Of a stretch of 64,000 bases of DNA, positions 1-47,149 are shown piece by piece. Both the position numbers and the translations under genes were made by a program. Each line of letters starts with the position of its first letter. Position 1 is the stretch's first letter. The stretch is from Magnetococcus sp. DMHC-6 (GTDB lineage Bacteria > Pseudomonadota > Magnetococcia > Magnetococcales > JADFZT01): NCBI GenBank assembly GCA_039908535.1, contig JAMOAW010000002.1, positions 25,462 through 89,461 of the forward strand, read 5' to 3'. The notes beneath the pieces are model-generated. The model did no database searches. It was not told the DNA's origin and worked only from the letters and a program-made list of their open reading frames with translations.

Positions 1-144
1 GTGATGCACGCAACTCTTTGTCCATTGCTGCGCAACTCTTCTCCATACTCCTCACCAATATGAGAGAGTGCCTTGATCAAAGAGGTCGTTTTGCCAGAAC
101 CGGCACCCGCGATCATTAAAAAGCTTTGCCTTTTTTTTAGACAT
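1..144 (-). CDS. UvrD/Rep-type SF1 helicase, first 48 codons only (gene runs off the left edge); GajB-like partner of the adjacent OLD nuclease
   Basis: Reverse strand from ATG 144..142 reads MSKKKAKLFLMIAGAGSGKTTSLIKALSHIGEEYGEELRSNGQRVACIT. Walker A GAGSGKT sits where UvrD/PcrA/Rep have it. The gene starts 45 nt after the OLD-like stop on the same strand. Confidence 0.6.
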
Positions 145-189
145 TCTCGTAGAGTGATATCTGCTTGGGTATCTGACCTGGATGCTCGA

Positions 190-2432
190 CTACTCATCAA
201 GAGTCTCCAAATTTACGGTTACATCTTGAATATTTTTTTGTTCTTCTTCTGAATTTTGTCTTAATTCCAATTCAAGCCACTTCAAACCCTCATCAATGTA
301 ATGAGGCACTTTCCAATTATTATGCTTATCATCATTATTCATCATAATCAGGTTAAGTGCAAACTCTGTTTTCTTGAATGTACGTGACCAAACACGATTA
401 AACAATGCTTTTGCTATATCATCTAACGATTTTTTTTTCGAAACGCTTAAATTTAGTTTTTTGCGTGAGGAATGCTGACACCAATCTAAATTTTCCAATG
501 CAAACATCTCTTCAAATGTACGACCTACCAATAGTTTACTGTTTCCTTCCCAGGAAATTAATTGGTTAGTTTGAAAGGCTATGCGAATTTTTTTTGTAAT
601 GATTTTTTCATCCTCTTTTAATGATAGAAGTTCTTCGATCTTTATTGTATTCAATAATAACTTTTCAATGGTTTTATTTGATGTTATAGCACCAGGTGTT
701 GTTGTTTGACATGTGCCTTTAGGTTTTTTAGTATTTCCTTCTCCCTTTTCGGTATCTGTATTTTTAACATGTTCATGGATGCTATCTAAATCTGTAATTA
801 TAAGTGTAATAATCCCCAAAAACTCAATTAAATCTCTAAAAATATGGGCAAATGCACCACCGACTTCTAGAATACTCAAATATCGGAATTGAAGATCTTT
901 AGCTACCTTTTCGATTATTAAAGGTAACAATAACCGTTCGACATTGCCCTCTACAAGAATGGCAGCATCTGCAAAAAATAGATCACAATGGGTAAGTTTC
1001 ATGTATCGAATGAGAAATGCTTTTTCATCTTCACCAGAATCTCCTTTTTTAAATTGTGCAAGATTCAATACTCGACTATGGGAACGACATTCTTTCGTCA
1101 CCTCACGACGAAAATATCGTATAGAAGAAAAACCAGTTTCATAGAGGATATGAGGAGAATGGGTGGTAACTACCAATTGTGTTGATAATGTTTCTCCTAT
1201 TGGCATATTCAGGCTCAATGCTTTAAATACTTGACGAATAAATACTTGTTGAAGTTGGACGTGAAGGTGAGCCTCTGGTTCTTCAATAATGATCAAATGG
1301 AGCGGAGGGGGGGCAGGTACTAACCTCTTTTCTTTATAGTCGAGCAATTCCAAAATCATGTAAATCATATTTTTGAACCCTAACCCATTGTATCTGTCCG
1401 GCAAAGTCATATCAGAATCGTTATTTGCATCTAATCCTGGAAGACTATAATGGACCTCTGCATTCTCCTTTAATACACTTTCTGAATAATGGTTGCCCGC
1501 ACATTAAGGCGTGGCATGGTCAGGTTGGGATGTCCCATCCCCATTTCTTCTAAAGCTTTAAAAGTTGGCCTAAAAACAGTTGAAAACATTGAATTTATTA
1601 TTTGCTCTGACTCATTAATGGCTTGCATAACTTTATAATTATTTACTTTTTCTTTGTTATGCTGTTTAAAAAAGCGGCTGAAAAGTTTTGATAGATTTTC
1701 TGAACGAACAGAAGAATGAGAGGATTCCTTATCCGTCAGATGCCTCTGTGCATCCATGACATCTACTCTAATAAGATTATTCAAGACTACTTTACATTTC
1801 TCCCCCGTCTCTTCAAGGAGCGGAAAAGGGGTATAGTTTTCCTTTTTCTTATGGCCCTCAAATTCGGCATGATCCAAAACATAATAGTGAATGGCATATG
1901 ACTCATAGAGTTGTTTTGACAAATAATCGCAAAGATTTTTAGGCCATGGATGAAAATCTGATGTTTTTTCCTTCTGGTGAATACTTATATTGTCTTTAGC
2001 TTCTTGGCTGGCATTTTTAAAATCTTCTAGCAGCTTTGTTACATTTTTTGGTTTCCACTGTAAGCGTACACCTATCTTAGTACCTGTCCATTCCAGGCTT
2101 GGTATTAGGTGGATAACATGACGTAAATCACTATCTACGATTTCAAACCACATATCCAGGGTGATACAGGGAAAATCATTCGAGTCCACCTCTTTATTTT
2201 TTAAAGCTTGGTCTCCAAGTCGGTTAAATTCCTTCCAACATGGCGCATAAAAATCATGAAGAGTAAATCGCTCCCCAGCAGAAGAGTCTTTTAAAAATGG
2301 AATAAGTACGTGAGTGGCTGAAGTTTTGCCACTATTATTAGCACCAACAAAAAAAGTTGTTTCCTTGTCCATTTCAATATGAACATCTTTTAATCGGCGA
2401 TAATTTTTAATATGAAGCGATTCAAGACGCAT
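190..2432 (-). pseudogene. OLD-family ABC-type ATPase + Toprim nuclease (class 2 OLD / Gabija GajA-like), reading frame broken once (ORFs 1470..2432 and 190..~1500)
   Basis: N-terminal ORF: MRLESLHIKNYRRL...GANNSGKTS (Walker A). C-terminal ORF: signature-like NGLGFKN, Walker B LHLIIIEEPEAHLH, Toprim Glu (ILVEGNVERLLLP) and DxD (IITDLDS). Both frames are open across ~1470-1500. A 1-nt indel there would join ...PRLNVR to GNHYSESVLKENAEVHYSLPG.... Confidence 0.7.
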
Positions 2433-2649
2433 TTTTTTTATCCATAGAGGTAATTGCAAAAACCGGTAAAAATGGAAATTTATGGACCTTTTGAATCACA
2501 AAGGATCGTAATTTAACGTCCTTTCTGGTATTATGTGTTTGCTAAAAACGATCATAAACACAAGAAAGGACGGAAGAAAATGAATAGTCTTCGAGATGGA
2601 TTATCGCTTATTTGGAACAGAATTCAAGGGTCATTATTTCCTGAGCTTA

Positions 2650-3658
2650 GAAAATTCGGTGACACAATACCAAGAAAATTCGGTGACACGAAAATTCGGT
2701 GACACGAAAATTCGGTGACACGAAAATTCGGTGACACAATACCTAATTGCTTTTTCAACACGAAAATTCGGTGACACAATACCTAATTGCTTTTTCACAC
2801 GAACACGAAAATTCGGTGACACAATACCTCACGAAAATTCGGTGACACAATACCTAATTGCTTTTTCACACGAACACGAAAATTCGGTGACACAATACCT
2901 AATTGCTTTTTCGAAAATTCGGTGACACAATACCTAATTGCTTTTTCACACGAAATTTCGGTGACACAACGAAATTTCGGTGACACAATATATAATTGCT
3001 CGACGAAATTTCGATGACACAATATATCACGAAATTTCGGTGACAAAAATTTCGGTGACACAATACCTACAAAAATTTCGGTGACATACAAAAATTTCGG
3101 TGACACAATACCTAATTGCTTTTTCCATAAAAATTTCGGTGACAAATAAAAATTTCGGTGACACTAAATTTCGGTGACAAACACTAAATTTCGGTGACAC
3201 AATACCTAAATAAAAATTTCCACTAAATTTCAATAAAAATTTCGGTGACACAATACCTAATTGCTTTTTCCAAATAAAATACCTAAATAAAAATTTCGGT
3301 GACACAATACCTAATAAAAATTTCGGTGACACAATACCTAATTGCTTTTTCCAAATAAAAATTTCAATAAAAATTTCGGTGACACAATACCTAATTGCTT
3401 TTTCCAAATATAAAAATTTCGGTGACACAATACCTAATTGCTTTTTCCAAATACAATAAAAATTTCGGTGAATACCTAATTGCTTTTTCCAAATAAAAAT
3501 TTCGGTGACAAATAAAAATTTCGACACAATACCTTAAAAATTTCGGTGACACAATACCTAATTGCTTTTTCCAAGCACTAAAAATTTCGGTGACATAAAA
3601 ATTTCCAAATTTCGGTGACACCAAATTTCGGTGACACAATACCTAATTGCTTTTTCCA
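2650..3658 (+). repeat. Nested ('stuttered') tandem array of a ~36-bp unit (A)AAAT(T)TCGGTGACACAATACCTAATTGCTTTTTC(C)
   Basis: By eye there are about 32 copies of the core TTCGGTGA. 13 of them run the full length through AATACCTAATTGCTTTTTC. The rest stop early (after GACA, GACAC, ...AATACC) and restart at the same 5' point. Unit flanks drift along the array (CACGAAAATTCGG, then CGAAATTTCGG, then ATAAAAATTTCGG). Confidence 0.95.
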
Positions 3659-4109
3659 AGGGAATTCCCGCATGTCACCAGAATTCCCGCAGATTTCTCT
3701 CTACCTGCTGAAAGCGGCGTTTCAGAAAGCCAAGCACTGAAAGATCTGTTCGAGGGAAAACTGCCTGCCTTCATGACACAGCCCTAAGTGCTGACTGGTC
3801 ACATCTATTCGCCCCTTCTGCCGATTTGGCAGGGTGGTGCTGAAGTTACCGGCGTAGAAAGGTATTTCTACTGGAGGCTGTGCATCGTCCGCCGCTATCC
3901 TGACGGCTTCTGTAACTGATTTTCTTGAAGACTGCCTATTTGTAATCGTATTTTAAGATACAGACCCGTTTTTTGAGAACCACCCCCATTTTGACCACAC
4001 CCCCGACATCTCAAACAATTCTCTTGAAAATTACCGACAATGTAACTATATTTTTAATATAAAGACTCTTTCTAATCATTTTTTGAGAGCCGTAACGATT
4101 TTTTGAGGT

Positions 4110-5621
4110 GTGATGACATTGGACACGGCACAGAACCGGCTGGCAGGCTATGCGTTTCTGATAGAGCAATACGAGTTGAATACTTTGCCGAACTGGCACA
4201 CCTCCTCAGTCAGCCCGATGGGGACGCTACGCTCGACTATTCAGGATGGGCAGGTGGAATCCGTCTATCCCCACTCCTATTGGCCCGGAGACGGAACGGG
4301 AGACCATCTGGAGTTCGCCCTCAAGTATGACGGTGTCAATCTTGGTATCCTGTCGGCCCTTTTCGACGTGGTTCCAGCAGACGAGATAGCGGCCTGGATC
4401 AGCTCGAAACCAACCGGGAAATACGCCCGCAGGATCTGGTTCCTGTATGAATTCCTGACCGGACGGAAACTTCCGCTGCCGAATCTGATCAAGGGGAATT
4501 ACATTGAGCTGCTTGAGTCGAACCGTTACTACACCACAGCACCCGGTCGTCGCATGCAGCGTCAGAGAGTCATCGACAATCTGCTTGGCGGGAAAGATTT
4601 CTCTCCCATCATCCGGCGCACCGAAAAGCTCGCCGTCATGGAAGGACTCGACCTGCAGAAACGGTGCGAAGAGGTCGTGACCTCCTATCCACCGGAGCTC
4701 CTCAGACGGGCACTAAGCTACCTGTATAACAAAGAGACCAAATCCTCATTCGAGATCGAACACATCAAGCCGAGTGCCTCCCGGATAGAGAAATTCATCG
4801 GCTTGCTGGAGATGGCCGAGCACAGAGACTTTTGCGAGAAGCCTCTCCTGATCGACGTGCAGAACCGCATCGTCGATCCCCGATTTCAAGACACGGACTA
4901 CCGGGCCAACCAGAATTATGTCGGTCAGACTATTTCCTACCAGAAGCAGCTCGTTCACTATGTCTGCCCGAAGCCCGACGACCTCCCGGAACTGATGGCG
5001 GGACTACTCGCTGCCCATCAAGTGATGAAGGAGGGCGCGGTCCCCGCCATTATCCATGCCGCCGCCATCTCCTACGGATTCCTCTTCATGCATCCCTTTG
5101 AGGATGGCAACGGCCGTATTCACCGGTTTCTCATTCACAATATTCTGTTCCTGCGCGGCGAGATCCCGAAAGGGCTCATGTTCCCGGTCTCCGCCGCCAT
5201 GCTGAAAAATATGGCACTTTACGATCACTCCCTGAAGGCGTTCTCAAACCCGCTGATGCGGCTGGTTGAATACGACCTGGACGATCTCGGCCAAATGACC
5301 GTGCCGGATGTGACCGGACCTCTGTACAGGTACATCGACATGACCGCTCAGGCGGAGGCGTTGTATGATTTCATCAAGCTCACCATTGAGCACGAACTGT
5401 TGGAAGAACTCGATTTTCTGGCGAATTACGACAAGACCAAGCAGGCCATTCAGGAAATCGTGGACATGCCTGACCGACTCATTGATCTTTTTATCCAGCT
5501 CTGCCTGCAAAACAATGGTCGCCTTTCGGCGAAAAAGAGGGAATCGCATTTCGGGTTTCTGACCGATGACGAGTTGGCCGACATGGAAAATTCCGCCCGG
5601 GAAGGATACGCGAGGGAGTGA
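4110..5621 (+). CDS. Fic/DOC family protein (AMPylase-type fold) with long N-terminal extension
   Basis: Canonical Fic motif HPFEDGNGRIHRFL in a 503-aa ORF. GTG 4110 / ATG 4113 start. The surrounding 3660-5650 segment is visibly more GC-rich than both flanks. Confidence 0.85.
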   Translation: MMTLDTAQNRLAGYAFLIEQYELNTLPNWHTSSVSPMGTLRSTIQDGQVESVYPHSYWPGDGTGDHLEFALKYDGVNLGILSALFDVVPADEIAAWISSKPTGKYARRIWFLYEFLTGRKLPLPNLIKGNYIELLESNRYYTTAPGRRMQRQRVIDNLLGGKDFSPIIRRTEKLAVMEGLDLQKRCEEVVTSYPPELLRRALSYLYNKETKSSFEIEHIKPSASRIEKFIGLLEMAEHRDFCEKPLLIDVQNRIVDPRFQDTDYRANQNYVGQTISYQKQLVHYVCPKPDDLPELMAGLLAAHQVMKEGAVPAIIHAAAISYGFLFMHPFEDGNGRIHRFLIHNILFLRGEIPKGLMFPVSAAMLKNMALYDHSLKAFSNPLMRLVEYDLDDLGQMTVPDVTGPLYRYIDMTAQAEALYDFIKLTIEHELLEELDFLANYDKTKQAIQEIVDMPDRLIDLFIQLCLQNNGRLSAKKRESHFGFLTDDELADMENSAREGYARE

Positions 5622-5707
5622 GCTTCCAGGAACTCGTCAAAGTCGGTTGGAACCATGGGTTACAGGCCCCCAGGAGGGGGAGAGTTTTCCAGGGTTTTGC
5701 TGCGAAG

Positions 5708-5918
5708 GGTACCACCACATTTAAGTGTGGACGATGAACGAGTGTGAACAAAAAGCAAAGTCAAGACCTTGGGGGATTGCATCCCCCAATCCCCCCTGCT
5801 TTTTGAAGGAAGCAAAACCGAGGTCAAAAGCAAGACCCTGGGGGCAATCCCCCAGACCCCTTTTTTTTTAAAGAATAAAATCAAAAAACAGACGACCACG
5901 GTTAAGTGTGGTGGTACC
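5708..5918. mobile_element. MITE family 1, copy A (~211 bp, imperfect ~23-bp terminal inverted repeats GGTACCACCACATTTAAGTGTGG / CCACGGTTAAGTGTGGTGGTACC)
   Basis: Same element as 56939..57155 in the opposite orientation. Its interior carries two GGGGG-N6-CCCCC hairpin modules shared with the REP family. It lies between the convergent 3' ends of fic and lptG. Confidence 0.8.
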
Positions 5919-5968
5919 TGAAAAAGAGGGTCTGGAGGATTTGTTCCCCATGGTTTTATTTCTATTTT

Positions 5969-10351: not shown

Positions 10352-10499
10352 AAACGAGACCCTTTGGGCAAAAATTCAAAACCCTGATGGATGAATCCAC
10401 CCCATCCCCTCTTTTTTTTAACTTAACCATCAAAAGAAAAAAGGGGGGTGGAGGATTGGGGGGGGGGGGGGGGCAGTTCTCCGTCCTCCAAGGTTTTAC
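10352..10499 (+). repeat. REP/MITE family 2 copy R1 (degenerate), contains a G16 homopolymer at 10458-10473
   Basis: Aligns by eye with 13018.., 19602.., 35128... It lies between the convergent holC and PilZ genes. Confidence 0.7.
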
Positions 10500-10501
10500 A
10501 T

Positions 10502-13017: not shown

Positions 13018-13150
13018 GAACATGATGCCCTGTGGACAAAAAATTAAAATCAAAACCCTGGGGGCAATCCCCCAGACCCCTTTTTTCTTTTAATAAAAAA
13101 AAAGGGTGGGGGTGTTGGGGGCGGTTCTCCGCCCCCAAGGTCTTGAATGC
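13018..13150 (+). repeat. REP/MITE family 2 copy R2
   Basis: GAACATGATGCCCTGTGGAC...CCCTGGGGGCAATCCCCCAGACCCC...GGGGGCGGTTCTCCGCCCCCAAGGTCTTGA, between convergent genes. Confidence 0.85.
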
Positions 13151-15441: not shown

Positions 15442-16155
15442 TTATTTATACACATGAAACTCAATTCGGCGGTTTTTTGGATTTTCGGGGTCTAAACCCG
15501 CAATAGGTTTCGTTTTTCCCATACCAACGGGAACCAAACGCCAATCTTCAATGCCATTACGGACCAGATAATCTTTGACCGACATGGCCCTTTGCCAAGA
15601 CAATTGACGATTCATTTCATCATTCCCAACCGCATCCGTGTGTCCTTCAACAATTAAAGTAGAATTTTTTGCAGCTGGTGATTTGAGTGCTTCTGCCATA
15701 GTGTTCAAATAGTCATAGGTTGCAGACGATAAAGCTGCAGAACCACTTTTAAACTGTATCGGAAAGGAGACTCCCCCAGAAGAACCGCGTTCTGACTTCG
15801 TTTGAGATAATTCAGAGGGCACAGCTTGTTTCGCACTCTCTTTCGCACTCTCTTTCGCACTCTCTTTCGCACTCTCTTTCGCACTCTCTTTCGCAACTTC
15901 ATTCGAGGGAGCAGGGGAGGGGGTGGTTTTAAATTGAATAGATCTTGTTTTACGCTCTTTCTTAGGCTCAGAAGAGGGCTCAGAAGGAGGAGTAGCCGCA
16001 GAATCAAATAAAATATTTACCAATTCAGAAGCCTCTGGTGCTTTTTCATAAACTTTGGCATCACTCACATCACCCCCGATAACTAAATTTGGAGATAATA
16101 TAGAAGCACTCAGAACAATTGCGAATGATAATTTTAAAAAATCTTTTTTTATCAT
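15442..16155 (-). CDS. OmpA/MotB-type peptidoglycan-binding protein with (AKES)n linker
   Basis: C-terminal LIVEGHTDAVGNDEMNRQLSWQRAMSVKDYL...RRIEF (OmpA_C). N-terminal signal peptide. Confidence 0.85.
   Translation of the reverse strand: MIKKDFLKLSFAIVLSASILSPNLVIGGDVSDAKVYEKAPEASELVNILFDSAATPPSEPSSEPKKERKTRSIQFKTTPSPAPSNEVAKESAKESAKESAKESAKESAKQAVPSELSQTKSERGSSGGVSFPIQFKSGSAALSSATYDYLNTMAEALKSPAAKNSTLIVEGHTDAVGNDEMNRQLSWQRAMSVKDYLVRNGIEDWRLVPVGMGKTKPIAGLDPENPKNRRIEFHVYK
15833..15895. repeat. 12-bp in-frame tandem repeat GCACTCTCTTTC x5 (+ partial), encoding (AKES)n in the OmpA-like gene
   Basis: Five perfect units read directly at 15833-15892. Confidence 0.9.
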
Positions 16156-16199: not shown

Positions 16200-17729
16200 T
16201 TATTTAATGGTCAATTGTAATTTTCCATCAACCACTGGAACATTTAAAGCAGAAAATGAACTGCTTATTTTGTTCATATTATATCCCTGAATGACTTCAA
16301 GATCAGCACCCGATATCACGCTCGGCAATTTGTTCGTCACATCTGTTGTTGCAGCAAAACATTGAATCGTTTCTACCGAGTTTGGATAATCAAAAACAAT
16401 ACTAAATGGCATATTACCATCTGGAAGTTCAATTCCGCCCTGCTTAAGAAGAGCATTTTGGTTAAATCGATTAGGAAAAATTTTAATGACAGAATGATTC
16501 CCTTGCTCCCAAAAGCAATAGGTATATGCATTCTCCGTTAGGTTTAGAGAGATGATCATACTCTCGCCCACTTTATATTCTTTTTTGGGTGAAGATAATA
16601 AAATTTGTAAATTTGTACTTGTTGCTTGATTGCCTCCTCTGGCTTCAATTTCACGGACAATTTTAATGTGTTTAGCAATATTGTCCGCAATAGGTATGTT
16701 TAAATATGCCTGAAGCCAAATATTCGACGGAACATTATCCAATGAATTGGCTGTGTAGTGTATATTTTGTTTCTTGAAAATCACATTAACAGCATCTATA
16801 GCCTTAGAAGAATTTCGTGGATATTCGTCTTGAAAATATCCATATGCACCCAATATTAAGTCACCGATAGCCGCCGATCCATCCTCATTGATACTGTCTT
16901 CAATTTGACGAACCAACCTTTTATCAGGTTCAGATCCTGGTATAAGACGCCAATAGGGTACAGCAAACTGTCGTCCTAATAGTTGTACAACACTTACTTC
17001 TACAAGTTGTCGGATGGCCGCATGTACACCTTGTGACTTACTGGCACTGCCAGACATTCCAATCCCAGATCCAAAAATAGAAAATGACCAACCGGATGAT
17101 TTACTCTCTTTTTTAATATTAATCGTATTGGAGGTAAGGGCTCCAAGGGAGGTTTGGGAAACATAGTCCAACATGCTAAAATCAATGGTCATACGTGATT
17201 CATTAAAATCGTTATCATTAGACGTCCCTGCATCTACAGAAGAATTCCCAATAGGTATAGAAATATCCATATCTTTTGAGGTGCCTTTTGTAGAAACATC
17301 TTTATCAAATTCAGTAATTGCACCACTAATAACAAAATTGGGGATTTTGGTAAGCCGAATGCCTTGGCGAATGTTGATTTCATTGCTCATATATTGAGGA
17401 TCGTAAGGAACATTGACAATAGGCATCCCAATCTTATTGACTGCCGTCGTAACCATGCGCGTAATATCACTAGGCAATCCAGCACCGGCCGTATCATTGT
17501 TAATGGGTTTTATCTGAAAGTACATGGGATTAGATGATGAGCGTCCTGTGTACGTCCGCAAAAGTTTACCAAAATTGTATATTACTTCATCGTAATCTGT
17601 TTGACGGGTTGTTACGGCTTCCGTTTCTTTCATTTCAATCACTGGCGCATCTGTGGCACAACCCGTTAATCCCAGCGGATAGACTCCTAAAATGGCAACC
17701 AGATGAAATAATCTCCAATTTTTTTTCAT
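16200..17729 (-). CDS. Outer-membrane lipoprotein, CsgG/HfaB-like N-terminal domain fused to C-terminal DUF4384
   Basis: Lipobox LGLTGC. IKPINNDTAGAGLPSDITRMVTTAVNKIG and FVISGAITEFDKD resemble CsgG-family blocks. The C-terminal KVGESMIISLNL..AYTYCFWEQGNHSVIKIFPNRFN fits the DUF4384 pattern. Confidence 0.6.
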   Translation of the reverse strand: MKKNWRLFHLVAILGVYPLGLTGCATDAPVIEMKETEAVTTRQTDYDEVIYNFGKLLRTYTGRSSSNPMYFQIKPINNDTAGAGLPSDITRMVTTAVNKIGMPIVNVPYDPQYMSNEINIRQGIRLTKIPNFVISGAITEFDKDVSTKGTSKDMDISIPIGNSSVDAGTSNDNDFNESRMTIDFSMLDYVSQTSLGALTSNTINIKKESKSSGWSFSIFGSGIGMSGSASKSQGVHAAIRQLVEVSVVQLLGRQFAVPYWRLIPGSEPDKRLVRQIEDSINEDGSAAIGDLILGAYGYFQDEYPRNSSKAIDAVNVIFKKQNIHYTANSLDNVPSNIWLQAYLNIPIADNIAKHIKIVREIEARGGNQATSTNLQILLSSPKKEYKVGESMIISLNLTENAYTYCFWEQGNHSVIKIFPNRFNQNALLKQGGIELPDGNMPFSIVFDYPNSVETIQCFAATTDVTNKLPSVISGADLEVIQGYNMNKISSSFSALNVPVVDGKLQLTIK

Positions 17730-18151
17730 TTTACTTCGATTCCTTGCGTATGAACGGTCGTATTGATCTTTTTATTACGAATGTTGGTCCCTTTAAGAAC
17801 ATCCACCTGTCCTACATTAACATCAGGGTCTTCACCAGCAAGTTTGTTTATTTTTATTTCTTTATTGGTATCTACATAGTTGACAATTTTCTTTTTATTG
17901 TTATTATTATCAATTGTTTGGTTGCAAAGATTGTATGTCTTACCACCTGCCTGTTTTGTTTGACGTATTTGCTCATTTATTTCTTTGTCATCGCAGTACT
18001 GATAGGATGTATCCCCATAAGCACCCGAATTTTTTTGCATCTCTTCGCGTTGCTTAATCAAATTACCTTGTAATGAGCCAGCCAAGAGAGATCCAGACGT
18101 AAGCACGATGACACTCAATATTGTAGCAAATTGAACAAAAATTTTTTGCAT
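17726..18151 (-). CDS. Small secreted protein, translationally coupled to the CsgG-like gene
   Basis: 141 aa with a signal peptide (..LLAGSLQG). Its stop overlaps the downstream ATG (ATGA at 17726-17729). The C-terminal VNVGQVDVLKGTNIRNKKINTTV resembles the repeat of the four small paralogues. Confidence 0.6.
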   Translation of the reverse strand: MQKIFVQFATILSVIVLTSGSLLAGSLQGNLIKQREEMQKNSGAYGDTSYQYCDDKEINEQIRQTKQAGGKTYNLCNQTIDNNNNKKKIVNYVDTNKEIKINKLAGEDPDVNVGQVDVLKGTNIRNKKINTTVHTQGIEVK

Positions 18152-18229
18152 TTAGGTATCCCCATACACGCCAGAAAGTAACTTTTGAGATTTATATCCC
18201 AATAGTTAAACATAATATCACATGTAAGA

Positions 18230-18544
18230 TTAGTGAATCTTTACGCTACCAACATTCACTTGAGATTTACCAGAACTCGTGATATCGCCTGTCTCAGATT
18301 CTGTTTTAATCTCACTGTTTTGCATCTTTGTTCCTCGACCAATATCGACACTGGATGCATTAACCGTTGAAGTGTCAGAAGCTTTAATATTGCCGGTTTT
18401 CGCACTTGTCTCGATTCTGCTGTTCTGAATTGTCGTACCTGGACCAGAATTACTCTCTTCGCTTAACGATGTAAGACTTCCAGCACATAAAGGATTCATG
18501 ACAGCAAAAACAGCTACCAATGTAATGGCAGATACCAATTTCAT
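18230..18544 (-). CDS. Small secreted two-repeat protein, paralogue 1
   Basis: Signal peptide, then two ~33-aa repeats TTIQNSRIETSAKTGNIKASDTSTVNASSVDIGRG / TKMQNSEIKTESETGDITSSGKSQVNVGSVKIH. Confidence 0.7.
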   Translation of the reverse strand: MKLVSAITLVAVFAVMNPLCAGSLTSLSEESNSGPGTTIQNSRIETSAKTGNIKASDTSTVNASSVDIGRGTKMQNSEIKTESETGDITSSGKSQVNVGSVKIH

Positions 18545-18663
18545 GTGAAAACTCCTTATTCTGTTTGGAGGATGAATAGTAGAATATATATTAAATAAAA
18601 ATCATGTATAAAATATACAATCTTTACGCCAATAAATTGGCGTAAAGATTGTTCATTGATTGA

Positions 18664-18972
18664 TTATTGAATCTTGACACCACCCGCATTGACTTCTGAC
18701 TTATCAGAAGCTTTGATATTGCCAGTATCTGAACTGGCTTTGATTTCAGAGTTTTGAATCGTGGTGCCACGTCCAATCTCAACAGTGGCTGCTCCGACTT
18801 TGGATTCGTCTGAAGCTTCAATGTTGCCAGTTTTGGCATCGGTAGTAATTTTGGTATTCTGAATCGTGGTCTCTTTGCCACCACTACTAATGGCCGTTAT
18901 GCTGTCCGCAGAGGCAGAACCAATGACAACAAAAAGAGATGTAACAAAAGCAATGGCTGATAACGTTTTCAT
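18664..18972 (-). CDS. Small secreted two-repeat protein, paralogue 2
   Basis: MKTLSAIAF... start (ATG 18972). Repeats TTIQNTKITTDAKTGNIEASDESKVGAATVEIGRG / TTIQNSEIKASSDTGNIKASDKSEVNAGGVKIQ. Near-identical at DNA level to paralogue 3. Confidence 0.7.
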   Translation of the reverse strand: MKTLSAIAFVTSLFVVIGSASADSITAISSGGKETTIQNTKITTDAKTGNIEASDESKVGAATVEIGRGTTIQNSEIKASSDTGNIKASDKSEVNAGGVKIQ

Positions 18973-19113
18973 TTCGTTGCGTACTCCCCACAAAGATAGA
19001 TAATTTGTTGCTTCAACATTTACTACATGACAAAAAAATATTCATTCATCTAATTCAAATAAAGATTATATTTCATACACTGAAAGTCAGCGTATGAAAT
19101 ATATTATATTTGA

Positions 19114-19425
19114 TTATTGAATTTTGACACTACCAGCATCAACTTCTGACTTATCAGAAGCATTGATATTTCCGGTATCTGATTTGGCCTTTATTTCAGA
19201 ATTTTGAATTGTCGTGCCACGTCCAATCTCAACAGTGGCTGCTCCGACTTTGGATTCGTCCGAAGCTTCAATATTTCCAGTTTTGGCATCGGTAGTAATT
19301 TTGGTATTCTGAATCGTGGTCTCTTTGCCGCCACCACTACTAATTGCAGTTATGCTGTCTGCAGAAGCAGAGCCGATGACAACAAAAAAAGATGCTGCAA
19401 AAGCAATTATTGGAAACTTTCTCAT
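19114..19425 (-). CDS. Small secreted two-repeat protein, paralogue 3
   Basis: 103 aa with the same architecture. Long stretches are identical to 18664..18972. Confidence 0.7.
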   Translation of the reverse strand: MRKFPIIAFAASFFVVIGSASADSITAISSGGGKETTIQNTKITTDAKTGNIEASDESKVGAATVEIGRGTTIQNSEIKAKSDTGNINASDKSEVDAGSVKIQ

Positions 19426-19601
19426 TTTGTTTTGTACTCCTTTGAAGAAGGAAAGGAACGATAGTTTGTAAATATAATTATATTACATCATAAGTATAGC
19501 ATACATTGTGTTGCGATGTCAAGATCGTTTTTAATTTGATTAATATATTTAATTATATATTTAATTTTTTTAAAATAATTATATTAATATAAAATATAAT
19601 C

Positions 19602-19750
19602 CGAACGATGCCCTGCGGAAAAAAAATCAAATGCCAAACCCTGGGGGATGAATCCCCCAGACCCCCTCTTTTTTTTAAAACTTAAAAAAAAGAGGGGGTC
19701 TGGGGGGCAGTTCTCCGCCCCCCAAAGGTCTTGATTTTTTCCGATACATT
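19602..19750 (+). repeat. REP/MITE family 2 copy R3
   Basis: CGAACGATGCCCTGCGG...CCCTGGGGGATGAATCCCCCAGACCCCCTC T-run / A-run GAGGGGGTCTGGGGGGCAGTTCTCCGCCCCCC...CCGATACAT. Confidence 0.85.
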
Positions 19751-19759
19751 AAAATTTGA

Positions 19760-20068
19760 TTATTTAATCTTTACACCACCAGCATCAACATCTGAATTTC
19801 TTAATGCTTTAATATTTCCTGTATCAGAGGTTGTCTTAATATCTGAGTTTTGAATTTTTGTGCCACGTCCAACTTCAACGATAGCCGCTCCAACTGTGGA
19901 ATTGTCTGCACCTTCAATATTACCGGTTTTAGCCTCTGTATTCAAAGTAGAATTCTGGATCGTGGTTGTATCGGTTGAACCACCTGAACTAAGTGCAGTT
20001 AGACTATTAGAAAAGGCCGATGTTATAAAAATAAAAGTAGAAACAACGAATGCAAATAATGAGAACAT
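19760..20068 (-). CDS. Small secreted two-repeat protein, paralogue 4 (5' end abuts or overlaps a REP copy)
   Basis: MFSLFAFVVSTFIFITSAFS..., then TTIQNSTLNTEAKTGNIEGADNSTVGAAIVEVGRG / TKIQNSDIKTTSDTGNIKALRNSDVDAGGVKIK. ATG 20068..20066 lies inside the GAACAT terminus of REP R4. Confidence 0.6.
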   Translation of the reverse strand: MFSLFAFVVSTFIFITSAFSNSLTALSSGGSTDTTTIQNSTLNTEAKTGNIEGADNSTVGAAIVEVGRGTKIQNSDIKTTSDTGNIKALRNSDVDAGGVKIK

Positions 20069-20223
20069 AATGCCCTGCGGGAAAAAAAAATCAAATGCCA
20101 AACCCTGGGGGATGAATCCCCCAGACCCCCTCTTTTTTTTAAAACTTAAAAAAAAAGGGTGGGGGGAATTGGGGGGTGGCTCTGCCCACCCAAAGGTCTT
20201 GATTTTATTTTTCCAATACATAA
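20063..20223 (+). repeat. REP/MITE family 2 copy R4
   Basis: Full-length copy GAACATAATGCCCTGCGGG...CCAATACAT. Confidence 0.85.
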
Positions 20224-20250
20224 ATATTTTCATTCCATACTCCATAATAT

Positions 20251-20375
20251 GAACATAATGCCATTCGGGCAGAAAATAAAAAACAAAAAACTGAGGATTG
20301 AATCCCCAGACTCCCTCTTTTTTTAAATATTAAAAGAAAAGGGTAGGGGATTGAGGGGAGCAGTTCTTCTCTGAT
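20251..20375 (+). repeat. REP/MITE family 2 copy R5 (diverged), tandem to R4
   Basis: GAACATAATGCCATTCGGGCAG...CTGAGGATTGAATCCCCAGACTCCCTC.... It ends just before the caspase gene stop. Confidence 0.7.
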
Positions 20376-20383
20376 TGATAAGC

Positions 20384-22882
20384 TTATTCTTTAACTACCT
20401 GAAAATCCATCCCAGTGGAATTAAAGACAGGTGTTTGGTCATCTGTTTTATATTTATATACCAACAAAGGGACTTCTTGATGCATGTAGGTCAGTAATTC
20501 TTTGACAAAAATTGTCCCGTCTTCAGGTTTTTTGTCGGCTTGACCATCTAAACCAGTCAATATCGAATAGGTAAATATACCGTGTCCTAGCTCTGTCAAC
20601 TCATTAGCAGCTTGATTCCCCGTGGTGGCCGTCGCAATATGAATTCCTGTTGCACGCGCCAATTTTGCCATAGAACGTTGCTTATCAAAACTGGCAAACG
20701 CAGGCAAAGCTGAACCAGAGTAACACGCATCAATAAGGAGTAAAATTTTTTGCGCACCTATGTGGGCGATATATGATTTGAGTTCATCTGATGAAAGACC
20801 TTGCGTAGTAACAGATTTTTCCTCACCATCAAAATTGGTTGGAATAAAATACCAACGATTATTCATAGACACACCATGTCCTGCAAAATATAAAACAACC
20901 GTATCTTCAGGGGGAATGCGTTGTAGAGAATCCAAAGAAGTTTCAATCTGCTTTTTGGTCGCTTTTTGGTCGTAAATTTCGTATGTTGTTATATTATTGA
21001 AAACATTTATATATTTTTTTAAGAAAAAATCAAGAACGCCTTTGGCATCTAACACAGAAAAATCAAGATTCATTTCTTGAATTTGGTATTGATTGATCCC
21101 TACAACAAAAATATGCAATTTTGGTTTTATAGAAGCTTGGGTGACAGAGTCACCACCCGTAGGTGGTGATGCCACTTCTGTAGACGCAGATTTGGCATCT
21201 GGTGCTGTCGGTCTCTGGTTGGATTTTTCATCTTTGAGCTGATAGGATAATTTTTCTTCAATCGGTTCGCTCTCTATAAGATCTTTACTTAAACCAACTG
21301 TTTTTAGTACATTTTGTCCATTTACCAATTCGACACGATAAACCGTCTTTAACATTTCACCACTATCTTCAGTCAGATTTTCAGATGAAATAATTCGGCT
21401 TTTATCAATAATTTTTTGATTATGAAATAATCGGATCTCTTGAATTCCGCCGCCCTGATCCAGAGCATCAATACTCACATCCACCTCTTTAGAATAGCCG
21501 TTGGCATCAGGATTAACTGGTTTGATGATCATTTTAGGAGGCAGATAAAAACCATCGGATACCACCGGGACAACCGTGTTTTCTACAACATCTTTTTTTG
21601 CGAGAAGTTTACCAAGTAGGGCAGGGCGATAATAATTTTCAAGAAAGCCATCTAAAGCGAAAGAGTGTTGATCGCCTGCCCATTGAATGGCATCTAAACG
21701 ATCTTCAATGGCACCGTCTAAGGTTCCATCAAAATAGCCTTCTGGTGTGACAACCGCCCATCCCTCTTGCATAGAAACCAGACGTGCGATCTCCTTACCC
21801 GTTTCTTGATTCCAAACACGAAGCGTTTGGTCTGTTCCACCAGAGATCAACCAATCCTTCCCAGAGGCAAAAGTGACTGCATTGACCCCTTTTTGATGTC
21901 CCTCTAGGCGACGTATTTCGCGTCCATCGGAAACATTCCAAATGCGAAGGGTTTTATCCTGGCTGGCAGTGGCGAGGAAACGATGGTCTTGCGTAAAAGC
22001 CACTCCATTCACTTTTTCTTCATGCCCCGTGAATGTGGCCAATTTAGAACCGTCTGCAGGGTTCCAGAGATATGCTTGACCATCCTCGTGTCCTGTCACC
22101 AAAAATCGACCATCTGATGACCAAGCAATGCACAGAACAGCTCCTGTCGAAGCGTTCCATTCTAGAATAGGTTTTCCATCCATGGACCAAATTTGCACAC
22201 GACCATCTGATCCCGCCGTTGCCAATGATTGATTATCAGGAGCAAGGACCAAACCGTTTATTTGTTTTTCATGCGTTTGGATTGTTGACAATGGAGAAGC
22301 TGTTCTGAGATCCCAAATGCGTAGGGTGCCATCTAGGCTGGAGGTAATCAGTCGTTTTCCGTCGCGGGTAGGAGCCACACCCGTCACACTTCCGGTGTGA
22401 CCACGAAACGTAAGGAGGGTTTCTCTGGTCTCCATACGCCATAAACGCGCCGTACCATCCTCACTCCCAGTCACCAAAAAAGCTTTGCCAGCAGGGGCCA
22501 TCGACAAATTTTTTGGTAAAGGCGTTCCAAAAAACTCTTCCAAATTTTCAACAAAGGCCACACTGCGTACAGGCTGATTATGACCTGTGAGATTGACCTC
22601 TCTCTGACCATTATCAACATTCCAAACTTGAACTGCATGATTGCCGCTGGCACTTGCAAACCAAGTACCATCAGGACTAACAGCCACATCGTTGATGGCA
22701 GAACTATATCGAGATTGAATTTTAAACGTGGGTTTAAAAATTTGTCGTGTGTTTTTTTGTATCGCTTTGACAATGGTTTTGCTGGAATTGAACATGGCTG
22801 GACGGCTCTCGGCTGGTTGGCTGAAAAAGAGCAATCCTGTCAAAATAGATATGAAGCAAAGGTAGACCAAAAAGCGTTTCAT
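20384..22882 (-). CDS. Exported WD40-repeat protein with C-terminal caspase-like (peptidase C14) domain
   Basis: Signal peptide. Multiple WD40 blades (..H..V..VAF.PDG..L.T.S.DGT.R.W..). C14 dyad contexts VVLYFAGHGV (His) and KILLLIDACYSGS (Cys). 832 aa. Confidence 0.85.
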   Translation of the reverse strand: MKRFLVYLCFISILTGLLFFSQPAESRPAMFNSSKTIVKAIQKNTRQIFKPTFKIQSRYSSAINDVAVSPDGTWFASASGNHAVQVWNVDNGQREVNLTGHNQPVRSVAFVENLEEFFGTPLPKNLSMAPAGKAFLVTGSEDGTARLWRMETRETLLTFRGHTGSVTGVAPTRDGKRLITSSLDGTLRIWDLRTASPLSTIQTHEKQINGLVLAPDNQSLATAGSDGRVQIWSMDGKPILEWNASTGAVLCIAWSSDGRFLVTGHEDGQAYLWNPADGSKLATFTGHEEKVNGVAFTQDHRFLATASQDKTLRIWNVSDGREIRRLEGHQKGVNAVTFASGKDWLISGGTDQTLRVWNQETGKEIARLVSMQEGWAVVTPEGYFDGTLDGAIEDRLDAIQWAGDQHSFALDGFLENYYRPALLGKLLAKKDVVENTVVPVVSDGFYLPPKMIIKPVNPDANGYSKEVDVSIDALDQGGGIQEIRLFHNQKIIDKSRIISSENLTEDSGEMLKTVYRVELVNGQNVLKTVGLSKDLIESEPIEEKLSYQLKDEKSNQRPTAPDAKSASTEVASPPTGGDSVTQASIKPKLHIFVVGINQYQIQEMNLDFSVLDAKGVLDFFLKKYINVFNNITTYEIYDQKATKKQIETSLDSLQRIPPEDTVVLYFAGHGVSMNNRWYFIPTNFDGEEKSVTTQGLSSDELKSYIAHIGAQKILLLIDACYSGSALPAFASFDKQRSMAKLARATGIHIATATTGNQAANELTELGHGIFTYSILTGLDGQADKKPEDGTIFVKELLTYMHQEVPLLVYKYKTDDQTPVFNSTGMDFQVVKE

Positions 22883-23838: not shown

Positions 23839-24051
23839 TATTTAAATCCTGATTTTCCCCAAATATTTTTTGTTTAATTTTTTTTATTCCAAAATCATGA
23901 CGTACAATTTTTTTAAAAAAACTTAACATATCTTGACATTTATATCAATATTTGATAAATTCTATATAAACATAAAGAAAAAAAATAAAAAGATGGCGTT
24001 TCTGACGCAATTAGGGTGAACGATTCTTCAATAATATGGAAGGATAGTGCT

Positions 24052-24990
24052 ATGTTTAAATATAAAATTTTATTTTTATCTATTTTTTTTGTTGTATTAA
24101 CTCTCTCCATGACGGTTCATGCGGCACCTACTCCTGTAGAATTATTAATGCAGGTAAAAGGAGATGTTTTCTACAGTCATGAGGGGGGAGAATGGAAAGC
24201 CGTCCACCGTAATAAATATCTATTTCCTGGCGATCAGATTAAAACTGAAAATGGGGGATCTGGTCGTCTTATTAACCAAAAGAAACAACAGTACCGCACC
24301 TTAGGTCCCAATACCCTTCTTAAAATTAACGATGACCAAGCCTCGTTGGTCTCTGGGACTTCCCTTTCAGATTTTCAAGCCTTAGATGAACTCTCAAGCT
24401 CAGTCACCAATTTGTTTTCCAATTCACAAATGTATACCACAAAACGACGCAGTATCTTACACAAAGAGACGATCCATTTGGAAACCATCCAAAAAATAAC
24501 TTTGTCCAATACATATCCAGAGTTAATTTGGGAAGAGCTCGGCCCACAATACAGCTACCGATTAACCATAGATGATCATAGTGTCGATATCCATGGAACA
24601 AACAATGAAATCGTCCGATATAAAATTTCCGAACTTTCGCCCGGAGAACATCCATACAAGGTGGAACTCTTGAAAGATGGCAAGGTGATCGAAAGCCCAA
24701 AAAAAGCAACAGTCATTCGTTGGCTATCTCATGATGAGATGGAAATCATCTCTCAAGAAATGGAAAAAATTCGGCATTTAATCCCAGATGACGATTTAAT
24801 CCTGGCCAGTTATTTGGAAGAAAAAGGGTTGGCTGTCGCGGCTATGGACATGTACCAAAAATATTTCAAAGAAAATCCTGAGGACGTGGATATGCGTCCT
24901 ATGATGATTCAATCTTATTATAACCTAAAATTGACCAATCTAAGGAAAAAAGAGATGATCAATTTTAGCTCGAGTGAAAGTGGAAAATAA
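24052..24990 (+). CDS. Secreted protein with FecR-like N-terminal domain
   Basis: MFKYKILFLSIFFVVLTLSMTVHA signal. VKGDVFYSHEGGEWKAV..NKYLFPGDQIKTENGGSGRL resembles the FecR domain pattern. The ORF maximum starts at 24016. Confidence 0.5.
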   Translation: MFKYKILFLSIFFVVLTLSMTVHAAPTPVELLMQVKGDVFYSHEGGEWKAVHRNKYLFPGDQIKTENGGSGRLINQKKQQYRTLGPNTLLKINDDQASLVSGTSLSDFQALDELSSSVTNLFSNSQMYTTKRRSILHKETIHLETIQKITLSNTYPELIWEELGPQYSYRLTIDDHSVDIHGTNNEIVRYKISELSPGEHPYKVELLKDGKVIESPKKATVIRWLSHDEMEIISQEMEKIRHLIPDDDLILASYLEEKGLAVAAMDMYQKYFKENPEDVDMRPMMIQSYYNLKLTNLRKKEMINFSSSESGK

Positions 24991-29621: not shown

Positions 29622-31828
29622 TTGGAGTATAAGGTGTTACAACGCCAATTGCTGCGTTACCTATTGAGCTTGGCGGTTCTTACCATTTTTTTATTGCACA
29701 CGCTGGATGTGCTGCCATTGCAATTTCTAAAACAAATGGAAAATGTTGCCTATGATCTTCGGGTGCGTATAACCATGCCAGAAACCCTGGATCCGCGTAT
29801 TGTTATTGTTGATTTAGATGAAAAAAGTCTTGCTAAAATAGGTCGTTGGCCCTGGGGACGGCAACACGTGGCGCGTTTGGTGGATTATTTGTTTAATTAT
29901 TATCAAATTAGTGTCTTGGGTTTTGATATCGTGTTTGCTGAACCGGATGAAAGTTCTGGTTTAAAAATTTTGGATAAATTGCTACAAAACGAACTCAAAG
30001 AAAACACCCTTTTTAAACTGCTATTTGCAAAAATTCGACCAACTCTAGAAAATGATAAAATTTTTGCCAGCCATTTAAAGGACCGAGCTGTTATTCTTGG
30101 CTATTATTTTCGTTCCGAAGCCATGAGTGGATCCACCTCTTCGGGTATGTTACCAGAACCTATTCTCACTTTGGATGAGTTTGAAAAGTCTAATATTCCT
30201 TTTTATGAGGCTCGTGAATTTGGGGCCAATTTACCTGATTTGCAAAAGGCGGCTCTCAATGCCGGCTTTTTTGATAGCCCTGCGGTGGGCGAAGACGGAG
30301 TATTTCGGAGTGCGCCCTTGATCCAAAAATATCAAAAAGGGCTTTACCAATCGTTATCCTTGGGAATTATCCGTGCCCTTTTGGGGGATCCTCCTTTGAC
30401 TTTTGGAATCGTTTCCACCACGGACAATCCACTTGAAACCGATTATGGATTGGAATGGGTGGGGGTCGGTGATTACAAAATTCCAGTGAACGAGCAAGCT
30501 GCGGTGTTGGTCCCCTATCGAGGCAAACAGGGCAGTTTTCCTTATGTCTCTGCCGTGGATATTTTAGAAAAGAAAGCTCCCCTTACTCTATTGAAAGATA
30601 CCATCGTCTTGGTCGGCACCTCGGCCCCTGGGCTCATGGATTTACGGACGACGCCCGTACAAAGTGTTTATCCAGGTGTGGAGGTACATGCCAATATCAT
30701 CAGCGGAATTTTGGATGGCAAGATTCATCAAAAACCTGGTTATTCTTTGGGAGTGGATCTTTTGACTCTTCTGTTTGTTGGTCTGACCATGACTTTTTTA
30801 TTACCTCATTTAGCCCCCGCCTGGACCACCTATGTGACGGTATTATTTTTATTTTTTCTCAGTTGGATCAATCTTCTTTTTTGGAAAGAATTCTATCTCG
30901 TTATAACCTATTCTACACCAATCATTTTGATTTTTATGATGTTTTTATTGCATATGTCCTATGGTTTTTTCGTAGAGTCCCGTGGCAAGCGACAGTTATC
31001 TAGAATGTTTGGTCAATATATTCCATCAGAATTGGTGGATGAGATGAATCAAAGTGGCAAGGATTTTTCTATTGGGGGGGAGTCTCGGGAAATGTCGGTA
31101 CTTTTTTCTGATGTTCGTGGATTTACCACCATTTCTGAAGGGCTTAACCCAGAGGAGTTGACCAATTTGATGAATGGCTTTTTAACACCGATGACCCATA
31201 TTATTCATGCGCATCGGGGAACGATTGATAAATATATGGGTGATGCGATCATGGCTTTTTGGGGAGCTCCTCTGGATGACCCCACCCATGCCCGCAATGC
31301 CGTTTTGGCTGGTCTTGCGATGATTGATGGCCACCTTTGACGATCGGTGTTGGGGTGAATAGCGGATTGATGAATGTAGGTAATATGGGATCGGAATTTC
31401 GCATGGCTTATACTGTTTTGGGAGATGCCGTCAATTTAGGGTCTCGTCTGGAAGGGTTAACCAAACAGTATGGTGTCCATATGATTATCGGTGCCTCTAC
31501 GCAACACATTGTCGGCGCACAGATTGCTTGTCGGGAGTTGGATCGGGTTCGTGTCAAAGGTAAGGACGAACCGGTGATTATCTATGAACCCATTGGCCCG
31601 GTTGAAGGTTTATCTCCTGAAATGCAATCGGAGTTAAACATTTATCATCAAGCGTTAGCCTTGTATCGAATGCAAAATTGGGAAGAGGCTCTTCAACGTT
31701 TTCGAGCTCTTCAGCAACGGGATCCAGAGCGGATGATCTATAATATCTATCGGCAGCGCATTCAACTCTTTCGTAACGAACCGCCTGGATCAGATTGGGA
31801 TGGGGTGTTTACCCATACCAGTAAATAA
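29622..31828 (+). pseudogene. CHASE2-sensor class III adenylate/guanylate cyclase, catalytic domain interrupted (ORFs 29622..31340 and 31337..31828)
   Basis: CHASE2-like periplasmic part and TM block. Cyclase motifs VLFSDVRGFTTISE, GTIDKYMGDAIMAFWGAP, then a stop at 31338. It continues in another frame as (WPP)[29 protein letters not shown]. Confidence 0.75.
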
Positions 31829-31834: not shown

Positions 31835-32095
31835 GCGGCACCACCACACTTAACCGTAGTCGTCTGTTTTTTGATTTTATTATTTAAAAAAAAAGGGGTC
31901 TGGGGGATTGCCCCCAGGGTTTTGTTTTTGTTTTTGTTTTTGTTTTTGTTTTTGTTTTTGTTTTTGTTTTTGCTTTTGCTTTTGCTTTTGCTTTTGCTTT
32001 TGCTTTTGCTTTTGCTTTTGACCTCGGTTTTGCTTCCTTCAAACAGCAGGGGGATTGGGGGATGCAATCCCCCAAGGTCTTGACTTTGTTTTTAC
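31835..32095. mobile_element. MITE family 1, copy B (one terminus recognisable, other end degraded) carrying an expanded hexanucleotide repeat
   Basis: GCGGCACCACCACACTTAACCGTAG... aligns with copy C up to ...CCCCAAGGTCTTGACTTTG, then diverges. Lies between the convergent cyclase and terB. Confidence 0.7.
31919..32020. repeat. Hexanucleotide microsatellite: (TTTTTG) x8 plus a leading partial unit, then (CTTTTG) x8
   Basis: Counted directly. The homologous spot in MITE copies A and C has only 1-2 such units. Confidence 0.95.
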
Positions 32096-32123: not shown

Positions 32124-32576
32124 TTACAGGCTAAAATCGGTTGGATTCAAACCCAATTCCGAAATCATTCGACGGACAATGTTTTGTTCTTGTAGGTCAA
32201 AATTTCCGTCTGAGGCCCCGATGGCACAACAGACGCGGACGATAAGTTGCGCTTGCGGTTTGCCACGAAATTGACCAATGATCTGCATCACTTCGCCAGT
32301 GCCGATATTCGTATCAAACTCAAATTTTTCCACATATTTTTGGAACAGTTTGATAACATCATTTTGATCGAAAACTTTGAGTTGCTCGGAACTTTTCAGA
32401 TATCCCATCATTTTTTGTTTTTCTTGTGAGGTCACATTGCCATCGGCGTAGCCTACTAAGGCACACCCGGCGATGACGGCTTCAAGAAGATCTTTGGATT
32501 TAAACTTGGTGATTTCGGTATTAAGTGTCTCCTGAGCGAGGGTGACATTTTGTTTAAGCCAATCGGTGAACGCCAT
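32124..32576 (-). CDS. terB: Tellurite-resistance-type TerB protein
   Basis: MAFTDWLKQNV...AVIAGCALVGYADGNVTSQEKQKM... (TerB fold pattern). ATG 32576 is 2 nt after the upstream stop. Confidence 0.75.
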   Translation of the reverse strand: MAFTDWLKQNVTLAQETLNTEITKFKSKDLLEAVIAGCALVGYADGNVTSQEKQKMMGYLKSSEQLKVFDQNDVIKLFQKYVEKFEFDTNIGTGEVMQIIGQFRGKPQAQLIVRVCCAIGASDGNFDLQEQNIVRRMISELGLNPTDFSL

Positions 32577-32578
32577 TT

Positions 32579-35082: not shown

Positions 35083-35127
35083 AGATAAACGAAAGGCTCC
35101 GAAATCAGGCGGTTTTGAGTAGGTTTA

Positions 35128-35288
35128 GAACATGATGCCCTTCGGGCAGAAAAAATCAAAGGCCAAACCCTGGGGGATGAATCCCCCAGACCCCCTCTTT
35201 TTTTTAAAAATCAAAAGAAAAGGGTGGGGGGAATTGGGGGGCGGTTCTCCGCCCCCCAAGGTCTTGATTTTTGTCTTTCCGATACATA
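35128..35288 (+). repeat. REP/MITE family 2 copy R6 (full length)
   Basis: GAACATGATGCCCTTCGGGCAG...CCGATACAT, directly downstream of the flagellin gene. Confidence 0.85.
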
Positions 35289-35375
35289 AATTAAAGAATG
35301 CAGCATGGAGCACCAAAAGTCAAAAATAAAATCCAGAAGATCTTTTTTAGGATAAACGCCCCCCTGCCCGATTCA

Positions 35376-47141: not shown

Positions 47142-47149
47142 TTATTTTA

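Follow-up and report, generated by a model that had tools for sequence, protein, structure and literature searches.

A Gabija-type nuclease-helicase locus with a frameshifted gajA gene in Magnetococcus sp. DMHC-6

To which defence system does a nuclease-helicase pair from an uncultured magnetotactic bacterium belong, and is the break in its nuclease gene a real lesion? The pair lies at positions 1-2432, on the minus strand, of a 64,000-nt stretch (hereafter “the window”) of the metagenome-assembled genome (MAG) of Magnetococcus sp. DMHC-6. Judged by its sequence, the locus is the start of a two-gene Gabija-type operon in which gajA, encoding a class 2 OLD nuclease, is followed by gajB, a translationally overlapping gene for a UvrD-like helicase. 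The reading frame of gajA is broken once. We consider it probable that gajA is a genuine pseudogene and that the Gabija system is non-functional in this population. The locus looks like a recently pseudogenised defence system, and it is a member of Gabija by descent that likely persists as a pseudogenised copy.

The gajA gene is read in two frames. Its 5' part (frame A, positions 1470-2432, minus strand) extends for 320 codons from an ATG at 2432 to a premature TAA at 1472-1470, and its product comprises 316 native residues followed by four aberrant ones (QKVY). The mechanically called open reading frame (ORF) opens at a TTG at 2459; homologues open with MRLESL, which corresponds to the ATG at 2432. 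Frame A carries the Walker A motif GANNSGKT (2345-2322; residues 30-37) and the helical insert of the ATPase domain. The 3' part (frame B, positions 190-1485, minus strand) supplies residues 317-747 of the repaired protein, which is 747 aa long, and ends at a TAG at 192-190. It contains the NGLGF signature region, the Walker B motif LIIIEE (1296-1279; residues 380-385), the Toprim residues E495 (951-949), E499 (939-937) and D548-L-D550 (792-784), and also T639/E641 and K688. The -1 frame is open from 1503, and its first start codon is the ATG at 1410 (M342), from which a 406-aa ORF runs to the TAG at 192-190.

Pfam matched the first piece to positions 1-256 of the 374 of AAA_15 (E 1e-22) and the second to AAA_15 positions 296-373 (E 1e-19) and to OLD-like_TOPRIM (E 1e-17). 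The first-pass annotation of this DNA had described an OLD-type ATPase-Toprim gene with Walker A, Walker B, a Toprim glutamate and a DxD motif, and all of these were found on the minus strand at the positions given above. The repaired protein thus has the features of the OLD family: an ABC-type ATPase with Walker A and B, a C-terminal Toprim domain with its glutamate and DxD and, in the predicted model described below, an OLD-like overall fold.

GajA was the best PADLOC match for both pieces (5' part, PDLC00095/PDLC00093, E 4e-85; 3' part, E 2e-141). When the frame was repaired, residues 1-735 aligned with positions 1-744 of the 752 of PDLC00095 (E 2e-235), and PDLC00093 was matched over its full length (E 9e-235); these two GajA profiles have 736 and 752 positions. 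NCBIfam has no equivalog for this branch of GajA and gave weak matches only, to PtuA and retron Eco8. E495 and D548/D550 fall on the “EGpsE” and “DnD” of GajA. They are invariant in an alignment of 50 sequences, in which the repaired protein keeps all of the approximately 100 invariant residues, including the motifs, E499, T639, E641 and K688. An AlphaFold2 model of the repaired protein, built on the same alignment, had a mean pLDDT of 79.5 and a pTM of 0.76. Foldseek placed the Bacillus cereus GajA chains at the top of its PDB matches for this model (E 5e-17, ~16% identity, TM on target 0.56-0.61), followed by a Thermus class 1 OLD (E 1e-15), retron Eco8 and the Septu protein PtuA. A sequence search of solved structures likewise returned GajA as the best match (E 1e-9), along with the class 2 OLD C-terminal regions 6nk8 and 6njv (E 1e-5 to 2e-4). 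The alignments to GajA and class 2 OLD structures that had been proposed as a check therefore agree with the assignment.

What of the partner gene? The first 65 codons of gajB occupy positions 1-197 (minus strand) and the window edge cuts off the rest. Its ATG (197-195) overlaps the gajA stop codon by 8 nt (ATGAGTAG), GGAG lies 7 nt upstream, and the Walker A motif reads AGAGSGKT. The start was set by aligning the N-terminus (MSSRASRSDTQADI...) with those of 31 orthologous helicases (MDSRASKPDTQADI and similar). The 65-aa fragment matched the PADLOC GajB profile PDLC00143 (E 9e-24), while the Pfam UvrD-helicase match was below threshold on so short a piece. The first-pass annotation was right in seeing the beginning of a UvrD-like helicase here (GAGSGKT); the 45-nt gap that it placed between the two genes, probably counted from an out-of-frame ATG at ~144, is in reality the 8-nt overlap. 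Overlapping reading frames have been described as typical of class 2 OLD systems (PMC6755086).

The linkage of the two genes is also found in relatives. Helicases encoded downstream of 32 OLD homologues have N-termini that are 48-69% identical to the gajB fragment, and in 32 of 33 genome loci tblastn places a gajB homologue right after the OLD gene. When genomes and metagenomes were taken together, a helicase directly followed the OLD gene in each of the 74 related loci in which the 3' end of that gene is complete and followed by no less than 400 nt of sequence. The orthologous helicases are 623-652 aa long when complete, and three are truncated (L026, L030 and L031; 157-434 aa). The closest orthologue (L001) has 651 aa, and matches Pfam UvrD-helicase and UvrD_C and PADLOC GajB (E 6e-223); its best match in the PDB is GajB, which ranks above Rep. 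The overlap, the GajB match and the linkage in relatives together give the helicase pairing that marks class 2 OLD, with the window's own helicase seen to residue 65 only. By sequence, adjacent matches to GajA and GajB profiles also place the pair within the PADLOC definition of Gabija, and the GajA/GajB (class 2 OLD) arrangement put forward in the first-pass annotation is thereby upheld.

To locate the break, we compared the end of frame A and the beginning of frame B by blastp with four Magnetococcales homologues (P0001-P0004), and we used three-frame translation as well. Frame A matches the homologues until ...LNVRATI, and frame B picks up at ESVLKENAEVHY (ESVLKEN), two homologue residues further on. 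Exactly one nucleotide is therefore missing, at 1483-1487 (minus strand), between codon I316 (ATT, 1487-1485) and codon S317 (TCA, 1485-1483); a single 1-nt indel at ~1470-1500 had been suspected before. The site (ACC ATT AT^T CAG AAA) contains neither a homopolymer run nor an X XXY YYZ slippery heptamer. Programmed frameshifting was considered and ruled out, as the site lacks such a heptamer or homopolymer and the break is not conserved.

The 320-aa product retains Walker A and ends short of the ABC signature, Walker B, the H-loop and the entire Toprim nuclease. No Shine-Dalgarno sequence precedes the ATG at 1410 of the 406-codon ORF, and 25 residues (317-341), among them the invariant Y329 and a predicted beta-strand (326-331), are in neither product. 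Among 83 related loci from genomes and metagenomes, none is broken at this position, and so the break is an accident and not a conserved split. Four of these loci (L028, L030, L076 and L082) have frame changes in the OLD gene, all at other, scattered positions, and an IS3 element interrupts one Klebsiella plasmid copy (CP052287.1). Breaks that stem from decay or from sequencing error thus recur in this family, with OLD-gene frame breaks in ~5% of related loci. Owing to the 1-nt deletion in gajA, the locus does not have the two intact genes of a functional Gabija system.

The consequences can be framed by what is known of the B. cereus system. There, GajA tetramers join four GajB subunits in a complex of ~500 kDa (PMC10781630). 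GajA is described as a sequence-specific nicking endonuclease inhibited by nucleotides (PMC8136825), and GajB as hydrolysing (d)ATP/(d)GTP in response to the resulting DNA ends (bioRxiv 10.1101/2023.05.02.539174). B. cereus and a small number of further homologues are the only cases in which these reports establish phage protection, nucleotide-gated DNA nicking and the 4:4 complex. By analogy, an intact version of the DMHC-6 locus would be expected to act in the same way, with details not assured at 16% identity: the GajA Toprim domain, held in check by cellular nucleotides, would nick or cleave DNA, GajB would work on the DNA ends, and phage replication would be aborted. In DMHC-6, the nucleotide missing after codon 316 would end GajA at 320 aa; the nuclease and the defence system as a whole would most likely be inactive. 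gajB keeps its own GGAG ribosome-binding site.

Is the missing nucleotide a lesion of the chromosome or a flaw of the assembly? The DMHC-6 genome was obtained by Illumina MiSeq sequencing of uncultured cells (PMC9840458). One possibility is that the Gabija system is intact and functional and that the 1-nt gap at ~1485 is an artefact of MAG assembly caused by low coverage, a mixture of strains or amplification before sequencing. We regard this as possible, though rather unlikely. Indels do occur now and then in MAG consensus sequences, and the organism is uncultured; moreover, just one indel and no further stops occur in 2.2 kb, every catalytic motif is kept, and gajB retains its ribosome-binding site and overlapping start. 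Illumina chemistry, however, seldom yields single-base deletions outside homopolymers, and this site (ATTAT^TCAG) is not a homopolymer. Of the other 49 ORFs with 150 aa or more, all appear intact but mutS, the sole other broken gene in the 64 kb; since mutS has lost 44 nt, its break cannot be explained by a base-calling error. The repaired GajA also deviates at 17 of the 202 columns that are at least 90% conserved, more than any other of the 50 sequences (median 4), and this excess is compatible with relaxed constraint acting on the sequence. These observations favor our reading of gajA as a genuine pseudogene. Several points weigh against it. Aside from the one indel, neither half contains a stop and all ~100 invariant residues are present, and an intact gene with one sequencing error would look identical to the gajA observed. 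A consensus or assembly error at 1485 is possible, the break being known from the MAG consensus alone, and the deviations at conserved columns could instead reflect AT-biased divergence of an outlier lineage. The helicase is visible in the window for 65 residues only. Finally, at ~16% identity to B. cereus GajA, nucleotide sensing and 4:4 assembly would be extrapolations, as would the function of long-form GajA, which is assigned by analogy.

It could also be speculated that the break is tolerated or bypassed, either by reassembly of two polypeptides into a split GajA or by ribosomes that shift -1 to make the full-length protein. We consider this very improbable. The two halves of Rad50-type ABC heads can reassemble. 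In a split GajA, equally improbable in our judgment, the N-terminal piece would provide Walker A and the helical dimerisation insert and the C-terminal piece the signature motif, Walker B and Toprim. The break lies in a loop-rich, low-confidence stretch of the model (pLDDT ~50, residues 298-345), just past the helical insert that divides the ATPase (PMC10781630), and the 372-position PADLOC “GajA” model PDLC00088 begins almost exactly at the start of the second ORF, indicating that short C-terminal forms exist in databases. If real, such a protein would be a naturally split OLD nuclease, part-way to the two-gene ATPase/Toprim layout of PARIS. However, the residues absent from both products, the missing Shine-Dalgarno sequence and slippery site, and the lack of any split here in the 83 related loci all argue against it. 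A further alternative is that the ATPase comes from another OLD/ABC-ATPase system (PARIS AriA/AriB, Septu PtuA/PtuB, a retron-associated OLD or a stand-alone class 1 OLD) and that the helicase-like start is incidental. The ATPase half alone does match AriA (E 6e-28) and PtuA (E 3e-9), and retron Eco8 and PtuA structures were among the Foldseek matches. But the GajA models, which span the entire protein, outscore the others by ~180 orders of magnitude, the Toprim domain is part of the ATPase gene instead of being on a separate AriB, no HNH partner or reverse transcriptase is visible at the locus within the window, and the helicase is invariably linked in relatives. We find this explanation very improbable as well. 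The first-pass annotation had named PARIS and Septu as assignments that would overturn its own, and neither was obtained. For PARIS, the AriA model covers residues 1-430 only (E 1e-54), the repaired gene encodes the Toprim domain as well and a helicase follows. For Septu, the PtuA models match the Walker A region only (residues 8-49, E 3e-9) and the downstream gene encodes a helicase, not an HNH nuclease. The P2-type Old model scored E 3e-8 on the repaired protein.

Among the known systems close to this locus, the Gabija operon of B. cereus VD045 (PDB 8sm3, 8u7i, 8jq9 and 8x5i), which has been characterised both by experiment and by structure, is the best PDB match by structure and sequence, with GajB matched via the L001 orthologue. 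The two operons have the same gene order; in both, GajA is an ABC ATPase split by a helical insert and followed by a Toprim nuclease, and GajB is a UvrD-like superfamily 1 helicase. On the other hand, the GajA proteins share only ~16% identity and differ in length (747 aa here, 578 aa in B. cereus), the additional residues lying within the ATPase insert and downstream of DxD. B. cereus GajB has ~495 aa, whereas homology supports a helicase of ~630-650 aa here, and gajA is frameshifted in DMHC-6.

The class 2 OLD proteins of Schiltz et al. 2019 from Burkholderia pseudomallei and Xanthomonas campestris (PDB 6nk8 and 6njv) are matched directly, though distantly, through both of their C-terminal-region structures. 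E499, T639, E641 and K688 are invariant and occur in the same order as E404, T506, E508 and K562, the second-metal and helical-domain residues of the B. pseudomallei protein (PMC6755086), a putative correspondence based on motif order. The E...E, DxD, TxE and Lys pattern, whose residues are all invariant in the 50-sequence alignment, is consistent with the two-metal site. PARIS (AriA ATPase and AriB Toprim), retron Eco8 and class 1 OLD have in common with the DMHC-6 protein an OLD-type ABC ATPase, and in Eco8 and class 1 OLD the Toprim domain is fused to it as well. None of the three has a helicase partner, unlike the locus described here. PARIS has its ATPase and Toprim parts separated by a true gene boundary that follows a complete ATPase, whereas the break in gajA is inside the ATPase fold and results from one missing base.

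The protein belongs to a large subfamily. Of 8000 sequences scored in the protein search, 7286 were significant homologues. Among the 120 homologues listed, lengths range from 712 to 824 aa, and the best, from Magnetococcales MAGs, is 54% identical. Scans of genome and metagenome contigs with the repaired protein yielded only relatives whose identity did not exceed 50%. By sequence comparison 747 aa is therefore a normal size for this GajA subfamily. The remark in the first-pass annotation that an OLD protein of ~740 aa would exceed canonical GajA is correct with respect to the 578 aa of B. cereus, but the size is not unusual. A homologue was found in 153 plasmid records, mostly of conjugative plasmids, where it is annotated as “ATP-dependent endonuclease”. 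The thousands of members of this subfamily are spread across phyla, and PADLOC already models it as long-form Gabija (GajA PDLC00095 and PDLC00093; GajB PDLC00143 and PDLC00111). The DMHC-6 protein matches these GajA models over their full length and is in the same length class, although its nearest listed relative is only 54% identical and its reading frame is broken. Although divergent, the locus is an ordinary member of a family that is very large and already covered by existing models. It puts Gabija / class 2 OLD on record in the Magnetococcia and is a small, concrete case of defence-gene decay; with its nuclease frameshifted, it could be missed by tools that rely on predicted proteins.

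The other broken gene of the window is mutS (54368-56912, plus strand), which is split into a 231-aa ORF with MutS domains I and II and a 669-aa ORF with domains III-V. Alignment with the closest homologue (66% identity) shows the loss of 15 residues (QVATLEGFGIHDAPP, the conserved LxGFG loop) and a change of frame, equivalent to a 44-nt deletion at ~55015-55025. Public annotation of the region has only a 610-aa C-terminal protein, and a MutS fragment in the database that is annotated as DMHC-6 is 100% identical to the C-terminal part of MutS in the window. The deletion may be a sign of a mismatch-repair-deficient lineage of this uncultured magnetotactic coccus in which dispensable defence genes would be decaying. 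Speculatively, frameshifts of the gajA type would be likelier in a mutator background, should mutS really be inactive. If both breaks are real, their coincidence on one contig would mark this uncultured magnetotactic bacterium as a natural mutator lineage.

Where does the operon sit in the genome? The guanine-plus-cytosine (GC) content is 35-37% at positions 1-4000 compared to 45-53% in the adjoining lptG-lptF/pepA-holC core genes, and the Gabija operon lies in a low-GC, horizontally acquired islet beside lptG. Between gajA and lptG we found an irregular 1-kb repeat array, a Fic protein gene and one copy of a dispersed palindromic repeat. The Fic/DOC-family protein (503 aa; 4110-5621, plus strand) aligns along its whole length with the PADLOC defence candidate PDC-S24 (E 1e-178) and additionally matches SoFic (E 1e-19); the GC content of its gene is 52%, unlike the 36% of the neighboring Gabija genes. 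The earlier description of the context as resembling a defence island is borne out by the PDC-S24 match and the low GC content. We consider “defence islet” a reasonable reading of this neighborhood, the left edge of the islet being outside the window. The palindromic repeat copy between the Fic gene and lptG lies at the inner edge of the islet.

Between gajA and the repeat array is a non-coding leader (2433-2650, minus strand) that is presumed to contain the operon promoter. Its sole sigma-70-like match, at 2627-2600 (TTGAAT-16-GATAAT), is weak, and promoter-like sites are not enriched over shuffled sequences; a scan for promoters and terminators found nothing exceeding the shuffled expectation. 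The array itself (2581-3668, with the array proper at 2655-3636; plus strand) is directly upstream of gajA and consists of 30 same-strand copies of TTCGGTGACA, often lengthened to AAAWTTCGGTGACACAATACCTAATTGCTTTTT, at spacings of 16-120 nt. It starts just past a short ORF (MNSLRDGLSLIWNRIQGSLFPELRKFGDT) whose 3' end is the first repeat unit. We considered whether a transposase fragment is present at the left edge of the array; Pfam gave no match there. For the core motif, none of the 83 related loci contained an array, two of them having single chance matches, and we obtained no exact match in viral contigs and no match in Rfam or Pfam. The related loci, viral contigs and Rfam offered no evidence for a functional tie between the array and Gabija.

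The dispersed intergenic repeats are ~100-250 nt long and contain GGGGGATGAATCCCCC-type hairpins flanked by T/A runs. Copies occur at 5706-5930 and at about 10370-10500, 13025-13150, 19600-19740, 20060-20370 and 31836-32093, and further ones at about 35127-35290, 47147-47290, 56929-57157, 59140-59195 and 60311-60455. The family looks like repetitive extragenic palindromes or miniature inverted-repeat transposable elements.

Other features of the window include the magnetotaxis protein MtxA (24016-24990), which fits the magnetotactic source. Five tandem paralogous genes (17726-20245, minus strand) encode small (~100-160 aa), signal-peptide-bearing, Thr/Ser/Gly-rich proteins with a repeated “...TTIQNS.I...TGNI.ASD.S.V...V.I” motif, and a 230-nt DNA repeat family has four copies within this cluster. 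An 832-aa protein (20384-22882, minus strand) combines WD40 repeats with a signal-like segment at its N-terminus and, at its C-terminus, a domain resembling caspases (PADLOC caspase model, E 1e-13). Within an OmpA-family gene (15442-16155), ~8 copies of a perfect 12-nt tandem repeat (TTTCGCACTCTC) occupy 15817-15912. The C-terminus of a 572-aa protein, listed with positions 29622-31340 (plus strand) and 32124-33823 (minus strand), matches Pycsar cyclase (PycC) models (E 1e-16), and the domain in question is probably that of a generic nucleotide cyclase. Close to this protein is a TerB/TerD pair.

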